Shown here one piece after another: positions 4,762 through 60,780 of a stretch of 64,000 bases of DNA (within the stretch, counting starts at the first letter, position 1; each line of letters starts with the position of its first letter). Under the pieces are notes generated by a model, which worked only from the letters and a program-made list of their open reading frames with translations, did not search any database and was not told the origin of the DNA. This DNA comes from Mustelus asterias. Its lineage: Eukaryota. Location of the stretch: the NCBI RefSeq assembly GCF_964213995.1, contig NC_135804.1:99572001-99636000 (forward strand). The letters run 5' to 3'. The position numbers and the translations under genes were made by a program.

Positions 4762-5799
4762 ATGTATCAGACCTGTGAGCTATCATCAGAGCTGGAAAAA
4801 GCAAGTGGTGGAGGGTGGAGGACAGGAGAGATTAAATGACAAAAGGGTTAATGGTGCAAGGCCTTCCAAGGGAGTGGCAATGGGCCATGTAAAGAAACAA
4901 AAGATCAGTGTAGAGGGGTTGTGGATGGCGGAGTTTTGAATAGCTGCTGTCCAAAAGCAAAGGAAAAACAGAGTGCAAAGAAAAACCCAGCAAAATGAAG
5001 GGAATCAATTTGCCGAGGGAGTTCACATTCTTATATTTCTGAATTCAGTATCAAGTCCAAAAGGTTGTAAAGTGTCCATTTGAAAGATGTGAAGCTGTTC
5101 CTCGAGCTGGTGTTGAGCTTCAATCAAAAACTTCAGGAGGCTGAGGTCAGAAAGATCAGCAGTGTAGGAGCAAGGTGCAAGTTAAATATAACCCAGAGTT
5201 TCCATTTAAAGACTGAAAGGAGTTGTTCTGCAAAACAATTAACCAGTCAGCATCTGTAGCTGAGATCACATCATGAATAGTAAATGCGGTAACCTAAATT
5301 GAAGAAAGTACAAGTAAATTGCTGTTTCACCAGGAATGAGTATTTAGGGACTTAGATAATGAGAATGAGGAGGTCAAGGGGCAGCTATTGCAAGTCCTGC
5401 GCTGGTATGGAAAGGTGCTATGAGATGGGAAGAGAAGGAGGTGTTGGGCATGATTGATGAGTAGACCAGGGTATCACAGGGGCAACTATCTCTTCAGAAT
5501 GTTAAACAAGAAGGAGAGAGGAAGAGGTGTTTGTTCTGACAAAACACTGGGGGTAATGGAGGATAATCTTGAATATGCATGTTGGTGGGCTAGAAGGTGA
5601 GTAAAAATGAAACCTATCATGATTCTGGGAGGGAAGAGGTGAGGGCAGAAGTGTTGGAAGTAGGATGACCATGGTGGGAACTATTGGTTGAGAAAAAAGA
5701 CATGGAAGTACTAATATGGAAGATAGAACATAGAACAGTACAGCACAGAACAGGCCCTTCGGCCCACGATGTTGTGCCGAGCTTTATCTGAAACCAAGA

Positions 5800-8702
5800 T
5801 CAAGCTATCCCACTCCCTATCATCCTGGTGTGCTCCATGTGCCTATCCAATAACCGCTTAAATGTTTCTAAAGTGTCTGACTCCACTATCACTGCAGGCA
5901 GTCCATTCCACACCCCAACCACTCTCTGCGTAAAGAACCTACCTCTGATATCCGTCCTGTATCTCCCACCACGAACCCTATAGTTATGCCCCCTTGTAAT
6001 AGCTCCATCCACCCGAGGAAATAGTCTTTGAACGTTCACTCTATCTATCCCCTTCATCATTTTATACACCTCTATTAAGTCTCCCCTCAGCCTCCTCCGC
6101 TCCAGAGAGAACAGCCCTAGCTCCCTCAACCTTTCCTCATATGACCTACCCTCCAAACCAGGCAGCATCCTGGTAAATCTCCTCTGCACTCCTTCCAGCG
6201 CTTCCACATCCTTCCTATAGTGAGGTGACCAGAACTGCACACAATATTCCAAATGTGGTCTCACCAAGGTCCTGTACAGTTGCAGCATAACCCCACGGCT
6301 CTTAAACTCCAACCCCCTGTTAATAAAAGCTAACACACTATAGGCCTTCTTCACAGCTCTATCCACTTGACTGGCAACCTTTAGAGATCTGTGGATGTGG
6401 ACCCCAAGATCTCTCTGTTCCTCCACAGTCTTCAGAACCCTACCTTTGACCCTGTAATCCACATTTAAATTTGTCCTACCAAAATGAATCACCTCACATT
6501 TATCAGGGTTAAACTCCATTTGCCATTTTTCAGCCCAGCTTTGCATCCTGTCTATGTCTCTTTGCAGCCTACAACAGCCCTCCACCTCATCCACTACTCC
6601 ACCAATCTTGGTGTCATCAGCAAATTTACTGATCCACCCTTCAGCCCCCTCCTCTAAGTCATTAATAAAAATCACAAAGAGCAGAGGACCAAGCACCGAT
6701 CCCTGCGGCACACCGCTAGCAACCTGCCTCCAATCCGAAAATTTTCCATCGACCACCACCCTCTGTCTTCGGTCAGACAGCCAGTTACCTATCCAATCGG
6801 CCAACTTTCCCTCTATCCCACACCTCCTCACTTTCATCATAAGCCGACCATGGGGGACCTTATCAAAGGCCTTACTAAAATCCATGTATATGACATCAAC
6901 TGCCCTACCTTCATCAACACACTTAGTTACCTCCTCAAAAAATTCTATCAAATTTGTGAGGCACGACTTGCCCTTCACGAATCCGTGCTGACTATCTCGG
7001 ATTAATCCGCATCTTTCTAAATGGTCGTAAATCCCATCCCTAAGGACCCTTTCCATCAATTTACCAACCACCGAAGTAAGACTAACCGGTCTATAATTAC
7101 CAGGGTCATTTCTATTCCCTTTCTTAAACAGAGGAACAACATTCGCCATTCTCCAGTCCTCTGGCACCATCCCCGTGGACAGCGAGGACCCAAAGATCAA
7201 CGCCAAAGGCTCTGCAATCTCATCCCTTGCCTCCCAAAGAATCCTAGGATACATTTCATCAGGCCCAGGGGACTTATCGACCTTCAGTTTATTCAAAACT
7301 GCCAAGACATCCTCCCTCCGAACATCTATTTCCTCCAGCCTATTAGCCTGTAACACCTTCTCTTCCTCAAAAACATGGCCCCTCTCCTTGGTGAACACTG
7401 AAGAAAAGTATTCATTCATCACCTCGCCTATCTCTACTGACTCCATACACAAGTTCCCACTACTGTCCTTGACCGGCCCTAACCTCACCCTGGTCATTCT
7501 TTTATTCCTCACATAAGAGTAAAAAGCCTTGGGGTTTTCCTTGATCCGACCCGCCAAGGACTTCTCATGTCCCCTCCTAGCTCTCCTAAGCCCCTTTTTC
7601 AGCTCATTCCTTGCTAACTTGTAACCCTCAATCAAGCCATCTGAACCTTGTTTCCTCATCCCTACATAAGCTTCCCTCTTCCTTTTCACAAGACATTCCA
7701 CCTCTTTTGTGAACCATGGTTCCCTCACTCGGCCATTTCCTCCCTGCCTGACAGGAACATACCTATCAAGGACATCCAGTATTTGTTCCTTGAAAAAATT
7801 CCACTTTTCATTAGTTCCTTTCTCTGACAGTTTCTGTTCCCAACTTATGCCCCCTAATTCTTGCCTAATCGCATCATAATTACCCCTCCCCCAATTGTAA
7901 ACCTTGCCCTGCCGTACGGCCCTATCCCTCTCCATTGCAATAACAAAAGACACCGAATTGTGGTCACTATCTCCAAATTGCTCTCCCACAACCAAATCTA
8001 ACACTTGGCCCGGTTCATTTCCCAGTACCAAATCCAATGTGGCCTCACCTCTAGTCGGCCCATCCACATATTGTGTCAGGAAACCCTCCCGCACACACTG
8101 CACAAAAACTGCCCCATCCAAACTATTTGACCTACAAAGGTTCCAATCAATATTTGGAAAGTTAAAGTCCCCCATGACAACTACCCTGTGACCCCACACA
8201 TATCCATAATCTGCTTAGCAATTTCTTCCTCCACATCTCTATTACTATTTGGGGGCCTATAGTAAACTCCTAGCAACGTAACCGCTCCTTTCCTATTTCT
8301 AACTTCAGCCCATATTACCTCAGTGTGCAGATCCCCCACGAAGTGCCTTTCCGCAGCCGTTAAACTATCCTTGATTAACAATGCCACTCCTCCACCTCTT
8401 TTACCAGCTTCCCTACACTTAGTGAAACATCTATACCCCGGAACGTCCAACAACCATTCCTGTCCTTGTTCTACCCACGTCTCCGTAATGGCCACAACAT
8501 CGTAGTCCCAAGTACCAATCCACGCCCCAAGTTCATCTACCTTGTTCCGGATGCTCCTTGCATTGAAGTAGACACACTTCAACCCACCTTCCTGTCTACC
8601 AGTACCCACCCTTGACCCTGATACCTTCCCCAATACCTCACCACCCTCACTGACTTCTGGACTACAACTCCCTTTCCCACTCCCCTGACAAATTAGTTTA
8701 AA
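5800..8702 (-). pseudogene. CR1 ORF2 (APE endonuclease + reverse transcriptase), one frameshift at 8192-8195
   Basis: YFNARSI, VAITETW, GGGVAL, GVYYRPP (8181-8813 frame); MGDFN, SDHN, KSPGPD, NYRPVSLTS, QHGF, DFSKAFD, GVPQGSVLGP, FADD (5800-8199 frame). Confidence 0.92.
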
Positions 8703-9619
8703 CCCCCCTGAAGAGCCGTAACAAATTTCCCTCCAAGGATATTGGTGCCCCTCTGGTTCAGGTGCACCCCATCCTGTTTGTACAGGTCCCACCTTCCCCA
8801 GAACGTGTTCCAATTATCCACGTATCTGAAACCCTCCCTCCTACACCATCCCTGCAACCACATATTTAACTGCACTCTCTCCCTGTTCCTCAACTCGCTA
8901 TCACGTGGTACCGGCAACGTACCAGAGATGACCACATGTTTTGTCTTGGCTCTCAGCTTCCAGCCCAGCTCCAGAAATTCCTGCTTTAAATCCCCGTCCC
9001 TTCTCTTACCTATGTCATTGGTACCAATGTGCACCACGACTTGTGACTGTTTCCCCTCCCCCTTCAGAATCTGGAAAACACGGTCTGAGACATCACGGAC
9101 CTTGGCATCCGGTAGGCAACATACCATCCGTGAGTCTCTTTTGCTGCCACAGAACCTCCTATCTATCCCTCTAACTAACGAGTCCCCAATAACTATCGCC
9201 CTCCCGCTCTCCCCCTTTCCCTCCCGAGCCACAGAGACGGACACAGTGCTGGAGATCCTCTCACTGCGGCTCCCCACTGGTATGTCATCCCCCTCAACCG
9301 TACCCAAAGCGGAATACTTGTTGCTAAGGGGAACGACCACCGGGGATCCCTGCACGGACTGCTTCCTCCCAGCCCCTCTCACCGTCACCCATCTGTTTTC
9401 AATCCTCGGAGTAACTGTATTCCTAAAGCTTGTGTCTATGGCCATCTCTGCGTCCCTGATGATCCTAAGTTCATCCAACTCCAGCTCCAGTTCCCTAACA
9501 CGGTTTTGGAGGAGCTGCAGATGGGTGCACTTCCCACAGGTGTAATCAGTAGGGACACTGTCGTCGTCCCTCACCTCAAACATAGTGCAAGAGGAACATT
9601 GCACTGCCTGCACACCCAT
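8693..9619 (-). CDS. CR1 ORF1p (N-terminal zinc finger, coiled coil, SGNH/GDSL-type esterase)
   Basis: CSSC..CGKC, RVRELELELDEL heptads, IVIGDSLVRG, VVVHIGTND, DGVHL. Confidence 0.93.
   Translation of the reverse strand: MGVQAVQCSSCTMFEVRDDDSVPTDYTCGKCTHLQLLQNRVRELELELDELRIIRDAEMAIDTSFRNTVTPRIENRWVTVRGAGRKQSVQGSPVVVPLSNKYSALGTVEGDDIPVGSRSERISSTVSVSVAREGKGESGRAIVIGDSLVRGIDRRFCGSKRDSRMVCCLPDAKVRDVSDRVFQILKGEGKQSQVVVHIGTNDIGKRRDGDLKQEFLELGWKLRAKTKHVVISGTLPVPRDSELRNRERVQLNMWLQGWCRREGFRYVDNWNTFWGRWDLYKQDGVHLNQRGTNILGGKFVTALQGGLN
8696..8702 (-). promoter_or_regulatory. Candidate -1 ribosomal frameshift slippery heptamer U_UUA_AAC
   Basis: ORF1 ends GGG GGT TTA AAC TAA; the -1 frame TTT AAA CTA ATT TGT CAG is the ORF2 frame. 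Confidence 0.6.
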
Positions 9620-10689
9620 CCCCTTGAGATACCTTGCCAGTACCAGGTAGAAAGTGCAAAAATGAATTCAACTCACCCCTGCTCGCCCTTTCAGCCTAAG
9701 CCCTGTGAGCCAAAGTCTTATAGCTCACACTCTGCTTCCCACACACTCCACTGCCCGCTCCCGACGCTGCCCGCTGTATACTGCAGCCTACCTTTTATAC
9801 TTCACGCGCTTAAAAAACCCTTCCCAGACTCCTTTGCTGCCCACTTCTAGCTTTCACTTTAAACTTGAAAAACTGCTGTTAAAGTAAAGGCCAAAAAAAT
9901 ACACACACTAGCTGACTAATTAAATAAATAAACAATTCAATTAATCCAATTAATCTCTTACCAGCACTGCTGCTTTCAAACACCCCTCTCAGCTTGCTCC
10001 AGTGGATCAATGATGTCACCAGAATGGATGTGACAGATGGAGAAACTGGGAGAATGGAATAGAGTTCTTATAGGAAGTAGGGTGTGCAGAAATGTAGTCA
10101 AAGTATCTGTTTAAGTCACTTGGTTTATAGTAAACAGTGGCTGATGGCCTTTCTCCAGAAATGTAGACAGAGAAGTCAAGAGTTAACAAGGGGGGCAAAA
10201 AAAGAGTTGAGATGGAAATACATCGGTTTATTCAGGCTGGAACAGGCTGAAACAATGGAGAATTTTTCCCTCCTGCCCGCCACGGGAATCGGAGCAGGTG
10301 AGAGCCAGACTATGGAAAGGTCCATTGACCTCAGGTGGGATTTTCCGGTTTCAGGGCGAGCGCGGCCGGAAAATCCTGCCCAATGGGTCTACCAGAGCAG
10401 TCCTGTTTGTGGACCTTGGAAAGGAGGGTCAAATGGACTTTTTGGGGTTGTAGTATTCTAAGATTGGAGGCTATGAAGGGAAAATCTCCAGAGGAGATGA
10501 CATCAGTCACAGTGCTGGCAACAGTGGTAATGAGGTAGGATGTGCGGAAGTCGGTGGTAGACTTACCATTTTGTTCGGTAGAGGTCAGTATGACAGACAA
10601 CACCATGCTTATCAGCAGGAAGAGTCCATAGCAAGCCATCATAGTATCGGTTTCCTAAAACATCACTTCCTCACATACCCAAACCAGTC

Positions 10690-22644: not shown

Positions 22645-24997
22645 TGTCTTGTGCTTAAACAAAGGAGACTACAAAGGGATGAGGGAGGAGTTGGCTAAGG
22701 TAGACTGGGAGCAAAAACTTTATGGTGGGACAATTGAGGAACAGTGGAGGACTTTCAAAGTGATCTTTCACAGTGCTCAGCAAAAGCATGTACCAGTGAT
22801 AAGGAAGGACTGTAGTAAAAGAGATATGATGTGGAGATGCCGGCGTTGGACTGGGGTAAACACAGTAAGAAGTTTAACAACGCCAGGTTAAAGTCCAACA
22901 GGTTTATTTGGTAGCAAATGTTTTGCTACCAAATAAACCTGTTGGACTTTAACCTGGTGTTGTTAAACTTCTTACTGTAAAAGAGATAATCAGCCATGGA
23001 TATCTAAGGAAATAAAGGAGGGTATCAAATTGAAAGAAAATGCATACAAAGTGGCAAAGATTAGTGGGAAACTAGAGGATTGGGAAATCGTTAAAGGTCA
23101 GCAGAAAGCCACAAAAAAAGCTATAAAGAAACGTAAGATGGATTATGAGAGTAAACTAGCTCAAAATATAAAAACAGATAGCAAAAGTTTCGACAAATAT
23201 ATAAAACGAAAAAGAGTGGCTAAAGTAAACATTGGTCCTTTGGAGGATGAGAAGGGGGATGTAATAACTGGAAATGAGAAAATGGCTGAGGCATTGAATA
23301 AGTATTTTGTGTTGGTCTTCACAGTGGAAGACACAAATAACAGGCCAAAAATTGATGACAGGAAGGCTATGGCAGGGAGAACCTAGAAACTATCATTATC
23401 ACGAAAGAGGTAGTGTTGGGCAAGTTAATGGGGCTAAAGGTAGACAAGTCTCCTGGCCCTGATGGAATGCATCCCAGGGTACTAAAAGAGATGGCAGGAG
23501 AAATAGCAAATGCGCCAGTGGTAATTTACCGAAATTCGCTTGACTCTGGGGTGGTTCCCGCAGAATGGAAAACAGCAAATGTGACACCACTGTTTTAAAA
23601 AGGAGGTAGACAAAAGGCGGGTAACTATAGGCCGGTTCGCTTAACTTCTGTAGTAGAGAAAATGCTTGAATCTATCATCAAGGAAGAAATATATAATGTT
23701 GAATATAAATTGTCCCATTGGTAAGACGCAGCATGGATTCATGAAGGGAAGGTCATGTTTGACTAATTTGGTGAAATTCTTTGAGAACATTACATGTGCA
23801 GTGGACAATGGGGAACCTGTGGATATGGTGTATCTGGATTTCCAGAAGGCATTTGACAAGGTGCCGCACCAAAGGCTGCTCCATAAGATAAAGGTGCACG
23901 GTGTTACGGGTAACGTATTAGCATGGATAGAGGATTGGTTAACTAATGGGTATTTTTCTGGTTGGCATCAGTGACTAGTGGTGTGCCTCAGGGATCAGTG
24001 TTGGGACCGCAATGTTTTACGATTTACATAGATGATTTGGAGTTGGGGACCAAATGTAGTGTGTCAAAATTCGCAGATGACACTAAGATGAGTGGCAGAG
24101 CAAAGTGTGCAGAGGATGCTGAAAGTCTGCAAAGGGATATAGATAGTCTAATTGAGTGGGAAAGGGTCTGGCAGATGGAGTATAATGTTGGTAAATGTGA
24201 GGTCATCCATTTTGGTAGGAATAACAGCAAAATGGACTATTATTTAAATGGTAAAAAATTGCAGCATGCTGCTGTGCAGAGGGACCTGGGTGTCCTTGTG
24301 CAGGAATCTCAAGGAGTTGGTTTGCAGGTGCAGGAGGTAATTAAGAAGGCAAATGGAATTTTGTCCTTTATTGCTAGAGGGATGGAGTTTAAAAACAGCG
24401 AGGTTATGTTGCAGCTGTATAAGGTGCAGGTGAGGCCACACCTGGAGTACTGTGTACAATTTTGGTCTCCTTACTTGAGAAAGGATATACTGGCACTGGA
24501 GGGGGTGCAGAGGAGATTCATTAGATTGATTCTGGAGTTGAGAGGGTTGGCTTATGAGGAGAGACTGAGTAGACTGGGGCTATACTCATTGGAATTCAGA
24601 AGAATGAGGGGAGAGCTTACTGAAACATATAAGATTATGAAGGGAATAGATAAGATAGAAGCAGGGAAGTTGTTTCCACTGGCAGGTGAAACTAGAACTA
24701 GGGGGCATAGCCTCAAAATAAGGGGAAGCAGATTTAGGACTGAGTTTAGGAGGAACTTCTTCACACAAAGGATTGTGAATCTGTGGAATTCCCTGCCCAG
24801 TGAAGCAGTTGAGGCTACCTCATTGAATGTTTTTAAGGCAAGGATGGATAAATGTTTGAACAGTAAAGGAATTAAGGGTTATGGTGAACGGGTGGGTAAG
24901 TGGAGCTGAGTCCACGAAAAGATCAGCCATGATCTTATTGAATGGCGGAGCGGGCTCGAGGGGCCCGATGCCTACTCCTGCTCCTAGTTCTTATGTT
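22645..24997 (+). mobile_element. 5'-truncated CR1 LINE, frameshifted ORF2
   Basis: KSPGPDG, QHGF, DFQKAFD, GVPQGSVLGP, FADD spread over several frames; CR1 3'UTR ending gttcttatgtt. Confidence 0.92.
22826..22977. mobile_element. Minimal fold-back Penelope derivative (56-bp hairpin plus 38-nt tail) inserted into CR1
   Basis: Arms 22863-22918 and 22922-22977 with a single mismatch and 3-nt loop; TSD gtaaaagagata at 22815-22826 and 22977-22988. Confidence 0.9.
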
Positions 24998-25555: not shown

Positions 25556-25821
25556 GATTGGTCTTTGAAACAGAAATGCAAACAAAGAATAAACATTTAT
25601 CTGGATGACAAGATGTGCACCTTCCAGATCTGAAACTAATGGACAAGAACACAGCTGCAGGATGATTACTTGGCTTTGCATCTCTCCAATGGATTGACAG
25701 ATGTATTGACAGAGAAATAGTGTAACAAGATAAGAACCTCCCTCTACGTGACCTTTGGATTTATTGCAGTTATTGATTGTCACCAAGGGTTTTTGGAATT
25801 TATTTTGGTGAGACTCTGGTA
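25556..25821 (+). other. NLGN3: 5'UTR part of the first coding exon of NLGN3, with multiple upstream ATGs
   Basis: Strong acceptor tttgtttctctttacttgtcacag|G at 25555/25556; UTR status is inferred. Confidence 0.65.
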
Positions 25822-26314
25822 ATGTCATCGTGTACAATGTTTCTTTATACAAGATGGAGTTGTCCTATATCCTTTTTGCGACGCATAGCCACCATTTTCT
25901 TAAATGTAGACTGCAGTACTGCTCTCTGGATATTTAGTTTCGCTGTCAAGGTCATAGTGCTGGAGGGTCAGATCAACTACCCAACTGTGAATACACATTA
26001 TGGAAAACTACGGGGGATCCGAATTCCCTTGCCAAGTGACATACTTGGACCAGTGAATCAGTACCTGGGAGTTCCATATGCCAGTGCTCCCACTGGCGAG
26101 AAACGGTTCCAACCACCAGAACCCCCGCCCTCCTGGTCTGGAATACGTAATGTTACTCACTTCGCCCCTGTCTGCCCACAAAACATTCACGGTATGGTAC
26201 CGGAAATCATGTTACCGATCTGGTTCACGGCCAATTTGGATATAGTTGCAACATACATCCAGGATCAAAATGAAGACTGTTTGTATCTAAACATCTATGT
26301 CCCCACAGAGGATG
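25822..26314 (+). CDS. NLGN3: Neuroligin-3, first coding exon (signal peptide plus start of the cholinesterase-like domain)
   Basis: [34 protein letters not shown]...[23 protein letters not shown]...[31 protein letters not shown], with NLGN3-type residues; phase-1 donor GATG|GTGAGT. The start may alternatively be ATG 25837. Confidence 0.95.
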
Positions 26315-28435
26315 GTGAGTCAGTGGGGGACAAACCAATGCTTCTTTTGTCTGGTTCTTTGTTATTGTTTGTCTGTATGTTGCTCTTTAAGCATGAGGTG
26401 GTTCCCTATTTCCCATCTGCTGGCCCATCCCTTCCTGCATGCAGTTGTCATGTGGCTCATGTTGTGGCTTCTCCTTGCCTTGACCTTTTCATCTCTTACT
26501 GTCAATGGCACTGTTATGGTTCCTCTTTTGTTTCTTTGGCACAGTTTGACAACCAAAAGCTAATCATCACTGCAAATAATCTGAAGCCAGGTGCATTGAC
26601 CACAGGGTTAATTCTCAGTGTTTGGGGTTCACACTGCAATGTGTGAGGGGACAAGTGGGTTGAAAGGTTTGCAAAGGGTGATTGCAGAAATATTCTCTCA
26701 GGACATGTTTGGGTTGTGACTGAATGTCTGATGCAAGATCACTCTGAAATCCAGAGGATTAGACTGTTATTTGGTATTTATGGAAATTTTAATTCACTTC
26801 TTTGGGCTTATAATGTGAGGAGGGCATATTGTTCATTCACTAAGACCCCGAATCAATTTCCCAAGACTCAGTAAAGATTATCCATCAATCAATGTAGATT
26901 AACCAGGAGTCAGGATCAGCTATTTATAAATTGATGTGAATAACTCACAAACCAATGCAAATCATCCTAAAGCCAGTGTCAATTTGTCATACTCTACAAT
27001 ATAATCTAGCAATATCTGGTTTGATCTTGTTTATGTTTTGATCAAATGCTGTTAAAAATGTTGGATTTAAACACGTTTCCCTGAGGCCTCATGTCCTGGA
27101 GCTACTTTCGTAGGTCTCACTATGGTCTGGGACAAATCCCTGAAACGTGGTTGTGAGCATCAATGTGTAGGGAGGGATTTGGGCTAGTCACTTTTTATGC
27201 AGAGGCTTCACAATATACTAAGTTTAATTTATCTTGTTAACACCTTGACTCAGAAAATGAGTGACATTGGCACTGGGGGAAGAAAAGTGTACTAAGTTTT
27301 AAGTGCAATTCAGAACTGCTGTCATACACCTAAAGTCCATCTTAACTTTAGACTCAGAACACTTCCAATGCACCTGTGTGACATTTTTATTTCTCATACA
27401 GTTTGTGCTTAAGGCATGGAATTTTTTGGCTGTTCACATTGGCGGGATCTTCCAGTCCCGACGACAGTGCACCCAGCCGAGGGTTTCATGGCAGCACGGA
27501 GTGCATTCATCGGGAAACCCCATTGACAATGGTGGAACCAGAAGATCCAGCTGCTGGCCAATGGCTTCTGCTGCTGTGAAAAATATCACCCAGCGGTCTC
27601 TGAGTTAGTTTCTGATTTATTTATAAATTAATTTATAATTAATGTCTAAATTTGTGCTGTGGATGTTTTTCGACTGGGAGTCAAAATGTCCTCAGCAGGA
27701 TTCATTTCATATCCAAGGCAGTAATTGGGCTAGATTGATATTCAAGTTAATGAGGTGAGGTAATCAATCAGGTACCATTGGAAGCATTGTTTATTTCATA
27801 AACTACAAGCTGAGAACTTGGTCTCATATTGAAAACCAATGAAAAGTGGGCATAGTGCTTGCAACATGTACCCAAAAACAAAGTCATGAGATTTGCTGGA
27901 AAACAGCATCCTAATGTAGCTTGCTAGTCAGGGTCACTTTGAAATTGGCCAGATCAAGTAGATCCTGGGAGGGGAGGAGAACAGGAGAGGGGTGAATGCA
28001 GTCTGGTTGCGGCCCACCGTATTGTGTAGAGCCAGGAGAAACGCTCATGAAAGTAATTTTTAAGAAATTTAAAGTTCACCGGTCCTTGCTGATATGCTAA
28101 ATTTGGAATTGGGATCTGAAACAGACCCTAAGTTCCTGGTTAGTACGTTCCAGGGGCCTAATGCTGTTTTAGGTGGGTGCTTAATCAAGAGCCTTGCCAA
28201 ACTTTAAAGTCAGTGAAGATAAAATGTTGCTAAGTTGCATGGTGCAGTCAGTAAGGTGGGCACACTCTGTCTGACCCTAACTCCTCCAACACACCAATGT
28301 TGCTGGGTGAGGGGGATTAAACTTGGGCCGGAATCTTAGCTGAAGGCTTGGCCTTCACTGATAGAGCTTTTAAAATGAGGGTGCCGAAATCTTGGAGGGT
28401 TATAGGGCTGGAGGAGATTACAGAGATGAGGGGGC

Positions 28436-29478
28436 GGATGGTAACTAGTCGCATGCCGCAGGGATCGGTACTGGGGCCTCAACTATTTACCATTTATATA
28501 GACGATCTGGAGGAGGGGACTGAGTGTAGGGTAACAAAGTTTGCAGACGACACAAAGATAAGTGGAAAAGTGAATCGTGTGGAGGGAGTAGAAGGTCTGC
28601 AGAGAGATTTGGACAGGCTGAGTGAGTGGGCGAGGATCTGGCAGATGGAGTATAACGTTAACAAATGCGAGGTTATTCACTTTGGAAGAAATAATAACAA
28701 ATCGGATTATTATCTGAATGGAAAGAAATTACAACATGCTGCTGTGCAGAGGGACCTGAGGGTCCTTGTGCATGAGACGCAAAAACCCAGTCTGCAGGTG
28801 CAACAGGTGATCAAGAAGGCAAATGGGATGTTGGCCTATATCGCAAGGGGGATAGAATATAAAAGCAGAGATGTCTTGCTGCATCTGTACAGGGCATTGG
28901 TGAGGCCGCAGCTGGAATACTGTGTGCAGTATTGGTCCCCTTATTTGCGGAAGGATATATTGGCCTTGGAGGGAGTGCAGAGAAGGTTCACCAGGTTGAT
29001 ACCAGAGATGAGGGGTGTTGATTATGAGGAGAGACTGAGCAGATTGGGTTTGTATTCGTTGGAATTTAGAAGGCTGAGGGGGGATCTTATAGAGACCTAT
29101 AAGATAATGAAGGGGCTGGATAGGGTAGAGATGGAGAGATTCTTTCCACTTCGAAAGGAAACTAGAACTAGAGGGCACAGCCTCAAAATAAAGGGGGGTC
29201 AGTTTAGGACAGAGTTGAGGAGGAACTTCTTCTCTCAGAGGGTGGTGAATCTCTGGAATTCTCTGCCCACTCAAGTGGTGGAGGCTACCTCGTTGAATAT
29301 GTTTAAATCACGGATAGATGGATTCCTGATCGGTAAGGGAATTAGGGGTTATAGGGATCAGGCGGGTAAGTGGAACTGATCCACTTCAGATCAGCCATGA
29401 TCTTATTGAATGGCGGGGCAGGCTCGAGGGGCTAGATGGCCTACTCCTGCTCCTATTTCCTATGTTCTTATGTTCTTA
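28436..29478 (+). mobile_element. 5'-truncated CR1 LINE with open RT C-terminal half
   Basis: PQGSVLGP, FADD, LVRPQLEYC; tail (tatgttct)n. Confidence 0.92.
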
Positions 29479-41875: not shown

Positions 41876-41990
41876 TCACTTGAAGAAGTGATATAGACTC
41901 AAAACATTACCCTGTTTCTCACTGCACAGATGCTGCCAGACCTGCTGAGGTTTTCCTGCATTTTCTGATTTTATTTCAGATTTCCAGCAT
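41876..41990 (+). mobile_element. 3' terminus of a second Penelope-like family with decayed hammerhead; older copies near 21215-21325 and 31850-31950 (minus)
   Basis: tgaagaag..gactcaaaacatt..cacagatgctgccagacctgctgag..atttcagatttccagcatc. Confidence 0.5.
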
Positions 41991-42351
41991 CTCTCGGCCC
42001 AAGTCTCCAACCGATCTATATCCTGCTGTATCCTCTGATGGTCCTCATCGCTATCCGCAAATCCACCAACCTTTGTGTCGTCCGCAAACTTACTAATCAA
42101 ACCAGAGACATTTTCCTCCAAATCATTTATAGATATTACAAACAGCAAAGGTCCCAGCACTGATCCCTGAGGAACGCCACTTGTCACAGCCCTCCATTCA
42201 GAAACACACCCTTCCACTGCTACCCTCTGTCTTCTTTGATCGAGCCAGTTTTGTATCCATCTTGCCAGCTCACCTCTGATCCCATGCGACTTCACCTTCT
42301 GCACCAGTCTGCCATGAGGGACCTTGTCAAAGGCCTCACTGAAGTCCATGT
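41988..42351 (-). mobile_element. Internal CR1 RT fragment duplicating 43849-44212
   Basis: Near-identical to the neighbouring copy; no 3' tail. Confidence 0.85.
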
Positions 42352-43047
42352 TTTTTATTGCTGTCCTGTAATGTAAACTTTCTGAGGCAAGACTAAGTGC
42401 CATTAATGCAAAAAGTTCTGATAACACAGGATTACTGGTGCTGTGAGTACCAAAATGGACATACAATGTCCACAGATTTGTGTAGGTAGAGAATGCTGTA
42501 TATCTGAGCTGTCTAAATTTGCCCCAGCACGCAGTTCCAAACTTTTCTGCTATATTTCCCAAAGAAAAATCCCATCTTTGTTTAGATCTCAAAACTTCCA
42601 TAACCCCAGGGGAAGCATTGATGAGATCCTGCTATTGCATTGACGGTTTGCCTGATTGAGGTTATCAACATTAGTGATACAGTGCATACAGTCCCTGATC
42701 CATTTACATCATAGAATCGTACAATAGTACAGCACAGAAGGAAGCCATTCACTCCATCAAGTCTGTGCTAACTCTTTTGGAGAATAATCCAATTAGAATC
42801 AATTACTGTTCTTTCCCCAGATCTTTGCATTTTTTTCTCCTTCTAGTAATTATCCCGTTCACTTTTCAAGGCAAGTATTGCATCTCTATCCATCATCCTA
42901 TCAGGCAGTGCATCCCAAATCCTAACCACTCATTGTGTAAAGAGCAAAAGCAAATTTGGTTATGCCGTATGTGAGTTATCAGCTGCTGTTCAGTATCAAT
43001 TTTCCAAAGTGATGCATGTGTCGTCTCTTCAGTACTGACTTTGTGTT

Positions 43048-45324
43048 AGAACAAAGAAAATTACAGCACAGGAACAGGCCCTTCGGCCCTCCAAGCCTGC
43101 ACCGAACATGCTGCCCAACTTAACTAAAACCCCTACCCTTCCGGGGAACATATTTCTCTATTTCCATCCTATTCATGTATTTGTCAAGACGCCCCTTAAA
43201 AGTCACTACCATATCCACTTCCACTACCTCCTCTGGCAACGAGTTCCAGGCACTCACCACCCTCTGTGTAAAACATCTGCCTCGTGCATCTCCTTTAAAC
43301 CTTGCCCTTTGCACCTTAAAGCTGTGCCCCCGAGTAATTGACTCTTCCACCCTGGGAAAAAGCTTCTGTCCATGCCTCTCATAATTTTATAAACTTCTAT
43401 CAGATCGCCCCTCAACCTCTGTCGTTCCAATGAGAACAAACCAAGTTTCTCCAACCTCTCCTCATAGCTAATGCCCTCCAAAACAGGCAACCTCCTGGTA
43501 AATCTTTTTTGTTCCCTCTCTAAAGCGTCCACATCCTTCTGGTAGTGTGATGACCAGAATTGAACACTATATTCCAAGTGCGGCCTAACTAAGGTTCTAT
43601 AAAGCTGCAACATGACTTGCCAACTTTTAAACTCAATGCCTCCGCCGATGAAGGCAAGCATGCCGTATGCCTCCTTGACTACCTTCTCCACCTGCATTGC
43701 CACTTTCTGTGACCTGTGTACCTGTACACCCAGATCCCTTTGCCTATCAATACTCTTAAGGGTTCTGCCATTTACTGTATATTTCCTATCTGTATTAGAC
43801 CTTCCAAAATGCATTACCTTACATGTGTCCGGATTAAACTCCATCTGCCATCTCTCTGCCCAAGTCTCCAACCGATCTATATTTTCCTGTATCCTCTGAT
43901 GGTCCTCATCGCTATTCGCAAATCCACCAACCTTTGTGTCGTCCGCAAACTTACTAATCAAACCAGAGACATTTTCCTCCAAATCATTTATATATATTAC
44001 AAACAGCAAAGGTCCCAGCACTGATCCCTGATGAAAGCCATTTGTCACAGTCCTCCATTCAGAAACGCACCCTTCCACTGCTACCCTTTGTCTTCTTTGA
44101 TCGAGCCAGTTTTGTATCCACCTTGCCAGCTCACCTCTGATCACATGCGACTTCACCTTCTGCATCAGTCTGCCATGAGGGACCTTGTCAAAGGCCTCAC
44201 TGAAGTCGATGTAGACAACATCCACTGCCCTACCCTCATCAATCATCTTCGTCACTTCCTCGAAAAACTCGATCAAGTTCGTGAGACATGACCTCCCCTT
44301 CACAAAACCATGTTGCCTCTCACTAATATGTCCACTTATTTCCAAGTGGGAATAAATCCTGTCTCGAAGAATCCTCTTCAATAATTTCTCTACCACTGAT
44401 GTAAGGCTCACCGGCCTGTAATTACCTGGATTATTCTTGCTACCCTTCTTAAACAAAGGAACAACATTGGCTATTCTCCAATCCTCTGGGACCTCCTCCG
44501 TAGCCAGTGAGGATACAAAGATTTCTCTCAAGGTCCCAGCAATTTCCTCCCTTGCCTCTCTCAGTATTCTGGGGAATATTCCATCAGACCCTGGGGATTG
44601 TCTATTTTAATGTTTCTCAAGAACTCCAATACCTTCTCCTTTTTGATCTCAACATGACTCAAACTATCTACACACCCTTTCCCAGACTCCTCATCCACCA
44701 AGTCCTTCTCTTTGGTGAATACTGATGCAAAGTACTCATTTAATATCTCGACCATTTCCTCTGGCTCCACACATAGATTCCCTCCCTTGTCCTAGAGTGA
44801 GCCAACCCTCTCCCTGGCTACCCTCTTGCTCTTTACATATGTATAAAAAGCCTTGGGATTTTCCTTAATCCTGCTGGCCAATGCTTTTTCGTGACCCCTT
44901 TTAGCCCTCCTTACTCCTTGCTTAAGTTTCTTTCTACTTTTCTTGTATTCCACACTTGCTTCATGTGTTCCCAGCCTCCTAGCTTTGACAAATGCTTCCT
45001 TTTTCTCTTTGACGAGGCTCACAACATCTCTCATTATCCAAGGTTACCAAAACTTGCCATACTTATCTTTCATCCTTACAGGAATGTGCCGGTCCTGAAT
45101 CCCTATCAACTTACACTTGAAAGCCTCACACATGCCAGATGTTGATTTGTCCTCAAACATCTGCCCCCAATCTACATTCTTCAGTTACAGCCTAATATTG
45201 TTGTAATTAGCCTACCCCAATTTAGCACCTTAACTTGAGGACTACACTTATCTTTATCCATCAGTACCTTAAAGCTTACTGAATTGTGGTCACTGTTCCC
45301 GAACTGCTCCCCTACTGAAACGTC
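43048..45324 (-). mobile_element. 5'-truncated CR1 LINE
   Basis: 425-aa RT ORF (43254-44531) plus frameshifted flanking pieces and a CR1 3'UTR. Confidence 0.92.
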
Positions 45325-50326: not shown

Positions 50327-51593
50327 AGTGGATATCTGCTCTCAAACAGGGCATACAGAGACACAAAATCAAGTTACAGAATACTGATTAGAATGCGAAT
50401 CGCTACAGCCAACCAGGTCTTAAAGATACAGACAATGTGAGTGGTGGGAGCATTAAGCACAGGTTAAAGAGATGTGTATTGTCTCCGGACAGGACAGCCA
50501 GTGAGATTCTGCAAGTCCAGGAGGCAAGCTGTGGGGGTTACTGATAGTGTGACATAAACCCAAGACCCCAGTTTAGGCCGTCCTCATGTGTGCGGAACTT
50601 GGCTATCAGTTTCTGCTCCGCGACTCTGCGCTTTCGTGTGTCGTGAAGGATATGGCGCTCGGCTCATCGATCGACAGTTCCGACGCGCCACAGCAAAAAA
50701 CCACACCGACCTCCTCAGAAGACAAACACGGGACATGGTGGACAGAGTACCCTTCGTCGTCCAGTACTTCCCTGGAGCAGAGAAGCTATGGCATCTCCTC
50801 CAGAGCCTTCAACATGTCATTGATGAAGACGAACATCTCACCAAGGCCATCCCCACACCCCCACTTCTTGCCTTCAAACAACCGCACAACCTCAAACAGA
50901 CCATTGTCCGCAGCAAACTTCCCAGCCTTCAGGAGAACAGTGATCACGACACCACACAACCCTGCCACAGCAACCTCTGCAAGACATGCCGGATCATCGA
51001 CACGGATGCCATCATCTCACGTGAGAACACCATCTACCAGGTACATGGTACCTACTCTTGCAACTCGGCCAACGTTGTCTACCTGATACACTGCAGGAAA
51101 GGATGTCCCGAGGCATGGTACATTGGGGAAACCATGCAGGCACTATGACAATGGATGAACGAACACCGCTCGACAATCACCATGCAAGACTGTTCTCTTC
51201 CTGTGGGGGAGCACTTCAGCGGTCACGGGCATTCAGCCTCTGATCTTCAGGTAAGCGTTCTCCAAGGCAGCCTTCACGACACATGACAGCGCAGAGTCGC
51301 TGAGCAGAAACTGATAGCCAAGTTCCGCACACATGAGGACGGCCTAAACCGGGATCTTGGGTTTATGTCACACTATCAGTAGCCCCCACAGCTTGCCTCC
51401 TGGACTTGCAGGATCTCACTGGCTGTCCTGTCTGGAGACAATACACATCTCTTTAACCTGTGCTTAATGCTCCCTCCACTCACGTTGTCTGTATCTTTAA
51501 GGCCTGGTTGGCTGTAGAGATTCGCATTCTAATCAGTATTCTGTAACTTGATATTGTGTCTCTGTATGCCCTGTTTGAGAGCAGATATCCACT

Positions 51594-58179: not shown

Positions 58180-60780
58180 CACAGAATTGTTATGATGCAG
58201 AAGAAGGCCATTTGACCCATTCTATCTATACCGGCCCTCTAAATGAGCATGATGATTTAGTGCCATTCTCTTGCCTTTTCCCCATACCCCTGCACACTGT
58301 TTTTATTCAAATAACCATCTAATGCCCTCTTGAATGCCTCAATTGAACCTGCCTTCACCACACTTCCAGATAGTACATTCCAGACCTGAACCACTTGCTG
58401 TGTGAAAAAATTAATTTTTCACATCACATTTTCTTTTTTTCCCGATCACTTTTAATCTGTGCCGACCACCCCCGCTCCCCCCCACCCCATTCTTGATCGC
58501 TTTGCGAGTGGGAACAATTTCTCCCATTTTATTCTGTCCAGCATCAAATCTCGTTTTAGTCTTCTTTCCAAGGAGAACAGTCATAACCTCACCAATTTAT
58601 CCTCATAACTGAAATTTCTTATCCCTGAAACCCTTCTTGTAAACCTCTTCTGCACTCTGTACAATACATTCACATCCTTCCTACTGTGTGGCACCCAAAA
58701 CCGTACCAAATACTCCAAAAGAGATGTAACTAGTGTCTCGTATTAGTTCAGCATAACCTCACTGCTCTTGTCCTCTATGTCCCGATTAATAAAGCCCAGG
58801 ATACTATATGCTTTACTAACTATTCTCTCCACCTATCATAGAGTCATAAAGGTTTACAGCATGGAAACAGGCCCTTCGGCCCAACTTGTCCATGCTGCCC
58901 ATTTTTTTTAAGCTAAGCTAATCCCAATTGCCCGCATTTGGCCCACATCCCTCTATACCCATCGTACCCACGTAACTATCTAAATGCTTTTTAAAAGATA
59001 AATTTGTACCCGCCCTCTACTACTACTTTTGGTAGCTTGTTCCAGATGCTCACCACCCTCTGTGTGAAAAAATTGCCCCTCTGGACACTTTTGTATCTCT
59101 CCCCTCTCACCTTAAACCTATGCCTTCTAGTTTTAGACTCCCCTACCTTTGGGAAAAAATATTGACTATCTACCTTGTCTATGCCCCTCATTATTTTGTA
59201 GACCTCTATAAGGTCACCCCTCAGCCTCCTACGCTCCAGAGAAAAAAGTCCCAGTCTATTCAGCCTCTCCTTATAACTCAATCCATCAAGTCCCGGTAGC
59301 ATCCTAGTAAATCTTTTCTGCACTCTTTCTAGTTTAATAATATCCTTTCTATAATAGGGTGACCAGAATTGCACACAGTATTCCAAGTGTGGCCTTACCA
59401 ATGTCTTGTACAACTTCAACAAGACGTCCCAACTCCTGTATTCAATGTTCTGACTGATGAAACCAAGCATGCCGAATGCATTCTTCACCACTCTGTCCAC
59501 CTGTGACTCCACTTTCAAGAAGCTATGAACATGTACCCCTAGATCTCTTTGTTCTGTAACTCTCCCCAACGCCCTACCATTAACTGAGTAAGTCCTGCCC
59601 TGGTTCAATCTACCAAAATGCATCCCCTCGCATTTGTCTAAATTAAACTCCATCTGCCATTCGTCAGCCCACTGGCCCAATTGATCAAGATCCTATTGCA
59701 ATTGGAGATAACTTTCTTCACTGTCCACTATGCCACCAATCTTAGTATCATCTGCAAACTTACTAACCATGCCCCCTATATTCTCATCCAAATCATTAAT
59801 ATAAATGACAAAAACAGTGGGCCCAGCACTGATCCCTGAGGCACACCGCTGGTCACAGGCCTCCAGTTTAAAAAACAACTCTCTACAACCACCCTCTGGC
59901 TTCTGCCAAGAAGCCAATTTTGTATCCATTTAGATACCTCACCCTGGATCCCGTGAGATTTAATTTAATGCAACAACCTACCATGCGGTACCTTGTCAAA
60001 GGCCTTGCTAAATTCCATGTAGACAACATCAACTGCACTGCCCTCATCTACCTTCTTGGTTATCCCTTCAAGAAACTCAATTAAGTTTGTGAGACATGAT
60101 TTTCCACTCACAAAGCCATGCTGACTGTCCCTAATCAGTCTTTGCATCTCTAAATGCCTGTAGATCCTGTCTCTCAAAATACCTTCCAACAATTTACCCA
60201 CCACAGATGTGAGGCTCACTGGCCTGTAGCTCCCAGGCTTTTCCCTGCAGCCCTTTTTATACGAGGGCACAACATTTGCCACTCTCCAATCTTCAGGCAC
60301 CTCACCCGTGACTATCGATGATTCAAATATCTCGGCTAGGGGACCCGCAATTTCCCCCTAGCCTTCCACAATGTCCTGGGATATACTTCATCAGGTCCCG
60401 GGGATTTATCTACATTGATGCGCTTTAAGACTTCCAGCACCTCCTTCTCTGTAATATGTACACTCCTCAAGACATCACTATTTATTTCCCCAAGTTCCCT
60501 ATCCTGCTACTTTCAATGATCTATGCACATGTACACTCAGATCCCTCTGTTCCTGCAGCCCATTAAGAATTTTACCTCTTATTTTATATTGTCTCCATGT
60601 TCTTCTTACCAAAATACATCACCTCACACTTCTTCTCATTTTGCATCCTATCTGCCAGTTCTACCAACTTGTCCTTTTGAAGTTCCACACTCCTCTCAGT
60701 TTATAATACTTTCAAGTCCTCTGGCGCTTTCCCTGAGTCTAGAGAAAGCTGAAAGATTATGACCAGTGCCCCTGCAATTT
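58180..60780 (-). mobile_element. Older CR1 remnant hosting a younger CR1
   Basis: Degenerate CR1 3' sequence 58180-58835 continues at ~60500. Confidence 0.65.
58836..60500 (-). mobile_element. 5'-truncated CR1 LINE, frameshifted
   Basis: RT pieces 59965-60300, 59693-59929 and 58991-59680; cctatc repeated at both junctions. Confidence 0.9.

Follow-up and report, generated by a model that had tools for sequence, protein, structure and literature searches.

CR1 is described as the dominant retrotransposon in most vertebrates in the part of PMC13343379 covered here, and how ORF2 is translated in LINEs with two ORFs has been called an open question (PMC3894237, PMC3708506). Two other APE-type LINEs with two ORFs face the same expression problem: SART1 relies on UAAUG coupling with a downstream structure (PMC3894237, PMC3708506), and mammalian L1 ORF2 is thought, in the covered part of a standard recoding review, to initiate independently of its own AUG (PMC5009743). 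Both make a separate ORF2 protein, whereas the CR1 family studied here has no AUG at the ORF1/ORF2 junction, and UAAUG is found in some other CR1 lineages. The initial annotation regarded −1 frameshifting as typical of retroviruses and LTR elements, with the LINEs studied (L1, SART1) using reinitiation or translational coupling instead; the second half of this view needs correction, since a precedent is stated for Dictyostelium TRE5-A and TRE3-A, where a review's figure legend gives a −1 frameshift as required for ORF2 (PMC5911963). These are APE-type LINEs like CR1, but of another clade, with another ORF1 and in another host.

The tandem-slippage −1 sites of coronaviruses and retroviruses (U_UUA_AAC of IBV; G_GGA_AAC, A_AAA_AAC) have the same heptamer and phase as the CR1 junction, and there too the polymerase is encoded in the −1 frame, following a gene for a structural protein. 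The covered part of PMC5009743 names four heptamers at which mammalian ribosomes shift most readily, and the three inferred for CR1 are among them. The CR1 junction differs from the viral sites in that a stop follows the heptamer immediately and a G-tract lies at 10 nt, with no pseudoknot or stem conserved at 5-9 nt. Protein-stimulated frameshifting in arteriviruses (nsp1-beta with PCBP) and cardioviruses combines a long spacer, 11-14 nt in the same part of that review (PMC5009743), with a possibly linear motif; the likeness is one of resemblance only, as the CR1 motif is G-rich and not C-rich, its spacer is 10 nt and a CR1 trans factor is hypothetical.

The window, i.e., the whole 64-kb stretch of DNA that was analysed, carries a CR1-type element with the following parts.

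5720..10020, minus strand: near full-length CR1-type LINE, 5' boundary approximate, without a target-site duplication to fix it
9620..10020, minus strand: putative 5' UTR of 401 nt with zero ATG, boundary approximate
8693..9619, minus strand: ORF1 of 308 aa, ATG at 9619, C-terminus G-G-L-N-stop
8696..8702, minus strand: slippery heptamer U_UUA_AAC, in X_XXY_YYZ phase relative to ORF1
8693..8695, minus strand: ORF1 stop TAA, immediately following the heptamer
8676..8685, minus strand: conserved G-tract GGGG-NNN-(G/A)GG, candidate stimulator 10 nt past the heptamer
8571..8696, minus strand: linker from the shift site to the APE, without AUG in the −1 (ORF2) frame
8184..8570, minus strand: N-terminal part of ORF2, APE endonuclease (PF03372)
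5800..8214, minus strand: remainder of ORF2, C-terminal part of the APE plus reverse transcriptase (PF00078)
5722..5799, minus strand: short 3' UTR with a (GTTCTAT)2 repeat at its end and no poly(A)

ORF1 encodes a CX2C-X16-CX2C motif followed by a predicted leucine-zipper-like stretch and an SGNH/GDSL esterase (PF13472, E 5.5e-12; E 3.9e-37 against the ZfL2-1 ORF1 esterase structure 4C1B). An esterase-type ORF1 with an N-terminal zinc-finger-like motif is a canonical CR1 feature (PMC4120745, PMC13343379), and the element shares with canonical vertebrate CR1 (subgroup 7, ORF1 type IVB in PMC4120745; Canonical-CR1 in PMC13343379) this ORF1 as well as the APE-RT ORF2, the short 3' UTR and the microsatellite tail. 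APE and RT domains were both found in the window ORF2 and in that of the intact relative P0244. Its placement in the CR1 clade by RT is tentative: pairwise identity with locus L013 is 46% over 788 aa, and the element is visibly like CR1-labelled shark and ray consensuses. No clear target-site duplication was found around it, and the other CR1 pieces within the window are 5'-truncated and lack the ORF1/ORF2 junction. A single sub-threshold Rfam miRNA match inside ORF1 (n=1) was dismissed.

At the end of ORF1 the minus strand reads CAG GGG GGT TTA AAC TAA, with TTTAAAC at 8702-8696 and the stop at 8695-8693; the phased position of the heptamer directly before the stop, as first annotated, is borne out. 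So is the accompanying claim that the −1 frame runs open into the APE with no AUG ahead: it is open from 8813 (first codon TTG) to 8181, gives F-K-L-I-C-Q from 8702, comes to the start motif of the APE at −1 codon 45 and has its first in-frame ATG at 8207, within the APE. The TTG at 8813 was rejected as an ORF2 start, the upstream open stretch varying between 1 and 37 codons across copies. TTTAAAC followed by a stop occurs twice in 128 kb (both strands of the window), and a single copy would only be suggestive; the arrangement is more than chance because the heptamer is conserved across copies.

Genomic copies were collected by an ORF1 peptide pattern that leaves out the junction; most of them belong to a single data set and a small number of lineages. 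Among 39 metagenome loci, 15 extend to the end of ORF1, while 24 stop short and were not counted (L001 ends within the heptamer). TTTAAAC with a stop was present in 11/15 and TTTAAAC with a decayed stop in 2/15, so that 13/15 retain the heptamer; one of the others carries a decayed TTTTAAAAAA and one has lost the region. The window shares 27-34% amino-acid identity with these loci (alignments >100 residues) and is identical to them at between 1/11 and 6/13 fourfold sites, which is near saturation. In 11/11 copies all seven heptamer bases are invariant, rows chosen for having the heptamer and therefore to be read beside the rate of 13/15, and conservation extends to the synonymous positions, in a background where TTA makes up 42/488 Leu codons, AAC 82/176 Asn codons and T 367/1431 fourfold third bases. 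Since these bases are fixed while synonymous sites are near saturation, retention of the heptamer is not neutral inheritance. The stop that follows it is TAA, TAG or TGA in relatives, each giving Leu in the −1 frame. That frame is closed one or two codons upstream of the heptamer in 5/12 junctions, which means that F-K-L could not be maintained by an ORF2 starting upstream. Searches for related junctions returned nothing from viral contigs and no match from phages.

Protein ends widen the sample. ORF1 ends able to encode a slippery heptamer number 84/116, against a null of 4.5% (internal ORF1 tripeptides that could encode any slippery heptamer), and 29/56 or 10/19 after thinning at 60% or 45% identity. 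Only 1/75 ends have, ahead of L-N, a residue without a T-ending codon, compared with 70/300 at neighbouring positions, a difference no longer significant after thinning (p 0.07 at 60%, 0.30 at 45%). Before G-N the residue is Q in 9/9, which fits G_GGA_AAC (QGN clade, known from protein only); the L-N end of P0110 is nested within this clade, and an x-K-N group at the same position as the L-N and QGN ends fits A_AAA_AAC, again from protein only. In genome contigs, the search for the QGN group returned nothing, and a further search gave two loci, neither with a junction. The remaining 32/116 ends are incompatible with a slippery heptamer, the whole L2-like esterase clade among them.

Published consensuses point the same way. 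Among those of PMC13343379 (Suppl. Table 2), 17/23 TTTAAACTA matches were placed by eye at the ORF1/ORF2 junction; their elements come from alligator, crocodile, frog, bowfin, coelacanth, chimaera, sharks, rays and one teleost element, and the CR1-labelled shark and ray consensuses have the same junction as the window. When the rows were anchored on the D-G-x-H codons instead, the heptamer was found in 7/7 of those long enough. The comparison covered 400 characters per consensus, some with visibly missing bases, and the junction is visible only in 5'-truncated ones. In the files searched of the PMC4316615 supplement, matches were located in the 3' end of ORF2 and none at the junction, and the heptamer search of the PMC4120745 supplements gave no match. 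As a sequence feature, a junction with slippery heptamer, stop and G run is confirmed, and its conservation extends from shark CR1 copies to those of reptile and bird type. The initial annotation had staked its reading on conservation of the phased heptamer across vertebrate CR1s, and genomic copies and consensuses both agree with it.

Seen directly are a heptamer in phase with ORF1, a stop next to it and an open −1 frame lacking an AUG, all conserved across jawed vertebrates, together with a G-tract at a fixed distance of 10 nt. From this arrangement we infer that CR1 ORF2 is probably made by programmed −1 frameshifting at U_UUA_AAC (probability roughly 0.78), as had been proposed for the window; the retained heptamer and the AUG-less window family support that proposal. 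A ribosome with UUA and AAC in its P and A sites would re-pair on UUU and AAA, a slip that is known behaviour of U_UUA_AAC (PMC5009743, part covered), escape the stop and continue reading ...G-L-N-L-I-C-Q..., and the adjacent stop may add a pause. Most ribosomes would terminate, leaving a high ORF1:ORF2 ratio like that of retroviral Gag:Pol, and the product would be an esterase-endonuclease-reverse transcriptase fusion accompanied by free ORF1 protein in excess. Its length, first put at about 1,270 aa, comes to ~1,274 aa by arithmetic (ORF1 plus P0244), although the window copy itself cannot make the full fusion because of a one-base frame break near 8195, in the APE; P0215, P0244, P0246 and P0248 are intact relatives. 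No natural ORF1-ORF2 fusion protein with an RT family was seen among the 10 longer matches of a weak search that scored 7,999 candidates.

Termination-reinitiation is the strongest competitor, if an improbable one. Ribosomes that terminate at the ORF1 stop would start again at an AUG, or at a near-cognate codon, that overlaps or adjoins it. The conserved U/A- and G-rich bases would then serve to signal reinitiation, and ORF2 would be made as a protein of its own, ~965 aa long. SART1 (PMC3894237, PMC3708506) and, in the covered part of PMC5009743, mammalian L1 are precedents, and an in-frame AUG does lie within five codons of the heptamer in 6/12 genomic junctions (L003, L004, L007, L013, L027, L032), overlapping the stop as UAAUG in L027 and in the three shark consensuses ScyCan_CR1-1a, SquAca_CR1-17a and SquAca_CR1-6c. 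The window has UAAUU at this place, with a near-cognate AUU at 8693-8691, and not the UAAUG of SART1-type coupling; the change needed falls below 3% in run X1. This and the other public runs (X7, X10, X13) are assembled contigs, assessed among the variants listed, whose joints are low-depth and uninformative. The position of the AUG shifts between codon 4 and 5, and it is absent within 20 codons in the window, L002, L010, L012 and L020; by eye, the crocodilian and sawfish consensuses have none next to the stop. No Met lies between F-K-L and the APE in the intact relatives P0244, P0246 and P0248, the linker, of 38 to 89 codons, is in frame with the heptamer in 7/8 copies with a recognisable APE motif, and 6/7 of the single-base changes that would create an AUG in the linker are ruled out at a 3% share (run X1). 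The absence of an ORF2 AUG, as first annotated, thus holds for intact members of the window family and fails in several other lineages, which have one beside the stop. Reinitiation explains neither the codon-phased X_XXY_YYZ nor the swaps among L-N, Q-G-N and x-K-N ends.

It is considerably less probable that protein needs or common descent preserve the L-N-stop end and the glycine-rich residues at which the linker starts, with ORF2 made in another way such as internal initiation or a shorter transcript. L307 and N308 do belong to the ORF1 columns with little or no variation, and the DNA-level junctions come from few independent lineages; against this, TTA, AAC, the preceding T and the third positions of the G-tract are fixed, although fourfold sites around them are close to saturation. 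In the solved ZfL2-1 esterase the aligned part lacks an L-N end, and the esterase fold does not appear to need one. Splicing or another RNA-level event joining ORF1 to ORF2 is the least credible: its one support is that CUAAU and CAG|G in the window resemble a branch point and a 3' splice site, but the distance from branch to AG would be ~7 nt, and the AG before the G-tract is TG or CG in L002, L020, L027 and L032.

Counting against the preferred frameshift, no conserved stem or pseudoknot was found 3' of the heptamer, and U_UUA_AAC without a stimulator usually shifts weakly. GGGG begins at 8685 in the window, 10 nt past the heptamer, and starts at exactly this distance in 11/11 copies with all four G invariant; its third-position G and the GGG stay fixed whether the codons are for K, R, Q, L or S. 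The G runs annotated from 10 nt downstream are therefore conserved as regards the first tract, while the third run (8672-8670), 23 nt ahead of the fourth GGG, is copy-specific: position 8672 is A on the minus strand in 83% of run X1 contig depth and in all covering contigs of X7, X10 and X13. A canonical four-run G-quadruplex (four G3 runs, short loops) occurs in 0/11 copies, and the window scores 0.97 in our own implementation of a G4Hunter-type measure. With a copy-specific third run and no canonical copy, the four-run stimulator was rejected, and the quadruplex idea of the initial annotation is left weak; a two-tier or intermolecular quadruplex at the G-tract is still conceivable. No shared local fold was detected downstream of the heptamer (z-scores −1.66 to +1.44 in 11 folds), no stem 3' of it beats shuffles at 5%, and no shared distant duplex partner emerged. 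Nor was a stem-loop or pseudoknot found 5-9 nt downstream, in a scan of first stems and duplex partners in which pseudoknots were not explicitly modelled. Tentatively, and with the odds somewhat against it, the G-tract might stimulate shifting as a linear sequence and not as a stem or pseudoknot, either through a protein that binds it or through contact with the entry channel of the ribosome. Still more speculative is the wider picture of a Gag-Pol-like CR1 fusion whose frameshift would predate jawed vertebrates, with three heptamers exchanged and a linear G-tract read by a host- or element-encoded protein, with no RNA fold.

We found no report of CR1 frameshifting in the literature covered, to which the 1997 chicken and turtle CR1 papers, Kapitonov and Jurka 2003 and the Repbase notes are external. 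The word "frameshift" is absent from the main texts of PMC4120745 and PMC13343379, where the junction signal is undescribed, and the part of the standard recoding review covered names no CR1 case (PMC5009743). A conserved shift site makes the question of ORF2 translation testable in a 150-nt reporter, and the CR1 junction offers a candidate frameshift cassette with an unusual candidate stimulator. Annotation of CR1 ORF2 would change to a fusion protein with no start codon, and builders of CR1 retrotransposition assays should keep the junction intact. A fusion, if true, would attach a membrane-binding esterase to the polymerase; linear G-tract stimulation, if true, would add a new type to the known frameshift stimulators and give CR1 mobility a point of control.

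The canonical CR1 3' end is a short microsatellite without poly(A). The ends seen here are microsatellites too, (GTTCTAT)2 in the window and (GATTCTAT)n in L007 and L013.

The junction signal of CR1 is a real and conserved feature, and the copy in the window belongs to an element whose named homologues come from sharks and rays:

About 10020 to 5720, minus strand: near full-length CR1-type LINE
ATG at 9619, minus strand: ORF1, 308 aa, with a CX2C-X16-CX2C motif and an SGNH esterase (nearest solved structure, the ZfL2-1 ORF1 esterase)
8214-5800, minus strand: remainder of ORF2 (APE end, RT)

ORF1 ends GGT TTA AAC TAA, with TTTAAAC (8702-8696) in slippery phase and the stop immediately after it, as the initial annotation had proposed. 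Its description of an AUG-less -1 frame leading into the APE domain was also confirmed, this frame being open from 8813 to 8181, with its first ATG at 8207 and the APE domain entered at the 45th codon from the heptamer; in the window copy the frame is broken by one base near 8195. We consider it probable (about 0.78) that ribosomes would occasionally slip back by -1 on U_UUA_AAC and pass the ORF1 stop, giving a low-frequency ORF1-ORF2 fusion. Close relatives with intact ORF2 proteins are present, and three gene calls of 998 aa run from G-G-F-K-L-I-C-Q through to APE without Met; their first residue, and a shorter call of 936 aa, seem to reflect the gene caller's preference for a GTG. ORF1 plus this frame of the intact relatives sums by calculation to about 1,274 aa, close to the roughly 1,270 aa first estimated. 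Among 40 of the 59 variant rows from contigs of four public runs (8540-8860), none fell within 8682-8705, and in one run (X1) a tally of change types excluded, at 3%, six of the seven ways in which one base change could create an AUG in the linker. In three runs, contigs belonging to a more distant subfamily aligned only to the 37 bases at 8676-8712, a local conservation peak sitting on the junction.

At the protein level, 116 of 199 homologues end 20-40 residues past the catalytic D-G-x-H and constituted the set tested. X_XXY_YYZ could be encoded by 84 of these ends vs. 4.5% of internal tripeptides (29/56 and 10/19 after thinning to 60 and 45% identity). Before L-N, 12 different residues occur, and 11 of these have a T-ending codon; such a codon was lacking in 1 of 75 rows, vs. 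70 of 300 at positions nearby (p 7e-7 before thinning, 0.07 and 0.30 after it). Nine proteins end in Q-G-N, compatible with G_GGA_AAC, and Q never precedes L-N. In a tree of 87 esterase cores (tail excluded) an L-N end was nested in the Q-G-N clade, which an x-K-N clade adjoins, while an L2-like clade had no such end. The variant heptamers of the Q-G-N and x-K-N groups are predicted from protein, and sequence scans found no DNA of these elements. One clade (P0137, P0145, P0170, P0194) has W-x-K-N where others have L-N-stop, with ORF1 continuing 11-12 codons further; as judged from protein only, this may be an A_AAA_AAC site that lacks the adjoining stop. Two shark-type CR1 proteins (P0007, P0218) carry the species labels Pseudomonas aeruginosa and Carnobacterium maltaromaticum, probably through host contamination of bacterial assemblies.

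Thirty-nine metagenome loci, retrieved by a peptide pattern from mid-ORF1, have the sequence and the (GATTCTAT)n ends of bird-type CR1, from which we infer the host. The ORF1 end was reached in 15, where TTTAAAC was followed by TAG, TGA or TAA in 11 and kept beside a decayed stop in two; one had TTTTAAAAAA at this position and one had lost the region. Their ORF1s share 27-34% identity with that of the window (alignments over 100 residues), fourfold sites are near saturation, and TTA accounts for only 42 of 488 Leu codons. A -1 frame stop lies 1-2 codons upstream of the heptamer in 5/12 junctions, so that ORF1 has only some 15 bases in which to enter that frame. The linker leading to APE spans 38-89 codons and is in frame in seven of the eight copies with a recognisable APE motif. 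In the portion covered of the published consensuses (PMC13343379 Table 2; first 400 characters of each, species from row prefixes), 17 of 23 TTTAAACTA matches, a motif-selected count made by eye, sit at the ORF1/ORF2 junction, in alligator, crocodile, frog, bowfin, coelacanth, chimaera, catshark, dogfish, sawfish, stingray and one teleost element. Anchoring on the D-G-x-H codons instead gave 11 rows, of which two end before the junction, two are not ORF1, and all seven long enough carry the heptamer. The conservation and phase across vertebrates that the initial annotation proposed to check were found in 13/15 genomic loci and 7/7 anchored rows. In the part covered of PMC4316615 supplement 2, amniote CR1s carry TTTAAACT towards the 3′ end of ORF2 too, a caution for motif counts.

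The chief rival, reinitiation at or after the ORF1 stop, is unlikely: an AUG does lie within five codons of the heptamer in 6/12 genomic junctions, so that the lack of an ORF2 AUG initially claimed holds for the window family and its intact relatives and not for CR1 at large, but reinitiation leaves the phased heptamer and its exchange for other slippery types unexplained, and the window family has no junction AUG to use. In the sequences covered, one metagenome locus (L027:3992-4003) and three shark consensuses (ScyCan_CR1-1a, SquAca_CR1-17a, SquAca_CR1-6c) have the heptamer followed by UAAUG, the stop-start overlap of SART1, which speaks for reinitiation there; both mechanisms might coexist in these elements, and frameshifting and reinitiation could operate together in some lineages. 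Protein-level constraint keeping the ORF1 end is quite improbable and fits worse than frameshifting, as does splicing of ORF1 to ORF2, the least credible explanation.

Downstream, GGGG starts exactly 10 nt past the heptamer in 11/11 copies with enough sequence, with (G/A)GG three bases further on. Its first G occupies the third position of a Lys, Arg, Gln, Leu or Ser codon, and the codon that follows is invariably GGG, a triplet used for 141 of 394 Gly codons elsewhere; this pattern points to constraint at the RNA level. In the consensus rows covered (PMC13343379, by eye) the exact spacing recurs in 6/17, and most others, with bases visibly dropped, have a G4 run within 10 nt of the stop. The four-run G-quadruplex first suggested as a possible stimulator was rejected, the third G-run being private to the window copy and a canonical quadruplex occurring in 0/11 copies. 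A search for a fold, stem or distant pairing partner common to the junction copies found none; since, in the portion covered of PMC5009743, long-spacer stimulators are described as sometimes linear and linked to trans-acting factors, we tentatively favour a linear, possibly protein-bound stimulator. An adjacent stop can also stimulate -1 shifts (PMC5009743, same portion). One bird-type subgroup has a hairpin (CCAGGC...GCCTGG type) about 25 nt past the stop (L003:1262-1290; L010 and L012 at matching places), not significant against shuffles and not common to the remaining groups.

No report of CR1 frameshifting was found in the literature searched, including portions of PMC5009743, PMC5006619, PMC3708506, PMC4120745, PMC3905857, PMC11835228, PMC4255032, PMC13343379, PMC4316615 and PMC3894237; this scope does not extend to the 1997 papers on CR1 in chicken and turtle or to Kapitonov and Jurka 2003. 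In the passages covered, a +1 shift or reinitiation was suggested for Paramecium LINEs (PMC5405496) and a -1 frameshift stated as required for TRE5-A and TRE3-A (PMC5911963). The proposed mechanism is a known one, in a form apparently undescribed for CR1 in the literature searched, and is open to direct testing.

Elsewhere the window holds:

22967-24909, plus strand: 5′-truncated CR1-type ORF2 fragment, other subfamily
28321-29379, plus strand: the same
41876-45324, minus strand: the same
58281-60673, minus strand: the same
25777-26646, plus strand: carboxylesterase-family exon (PF00135)

The four fragments show 65-69% DNA identity to the window element and none reaches ORF1. The exon looks like a neuroligin's first coding exon, and the CR1 element may lie upstream of this neuroligin-like gene. 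Two similar repeats (366-800 and 50558-51148, both plus strand), without match in a Pfam search, share a W-Y-I-G-E-T motif, which we take to resemble the GIY-YIG end of Penelope-like elements.
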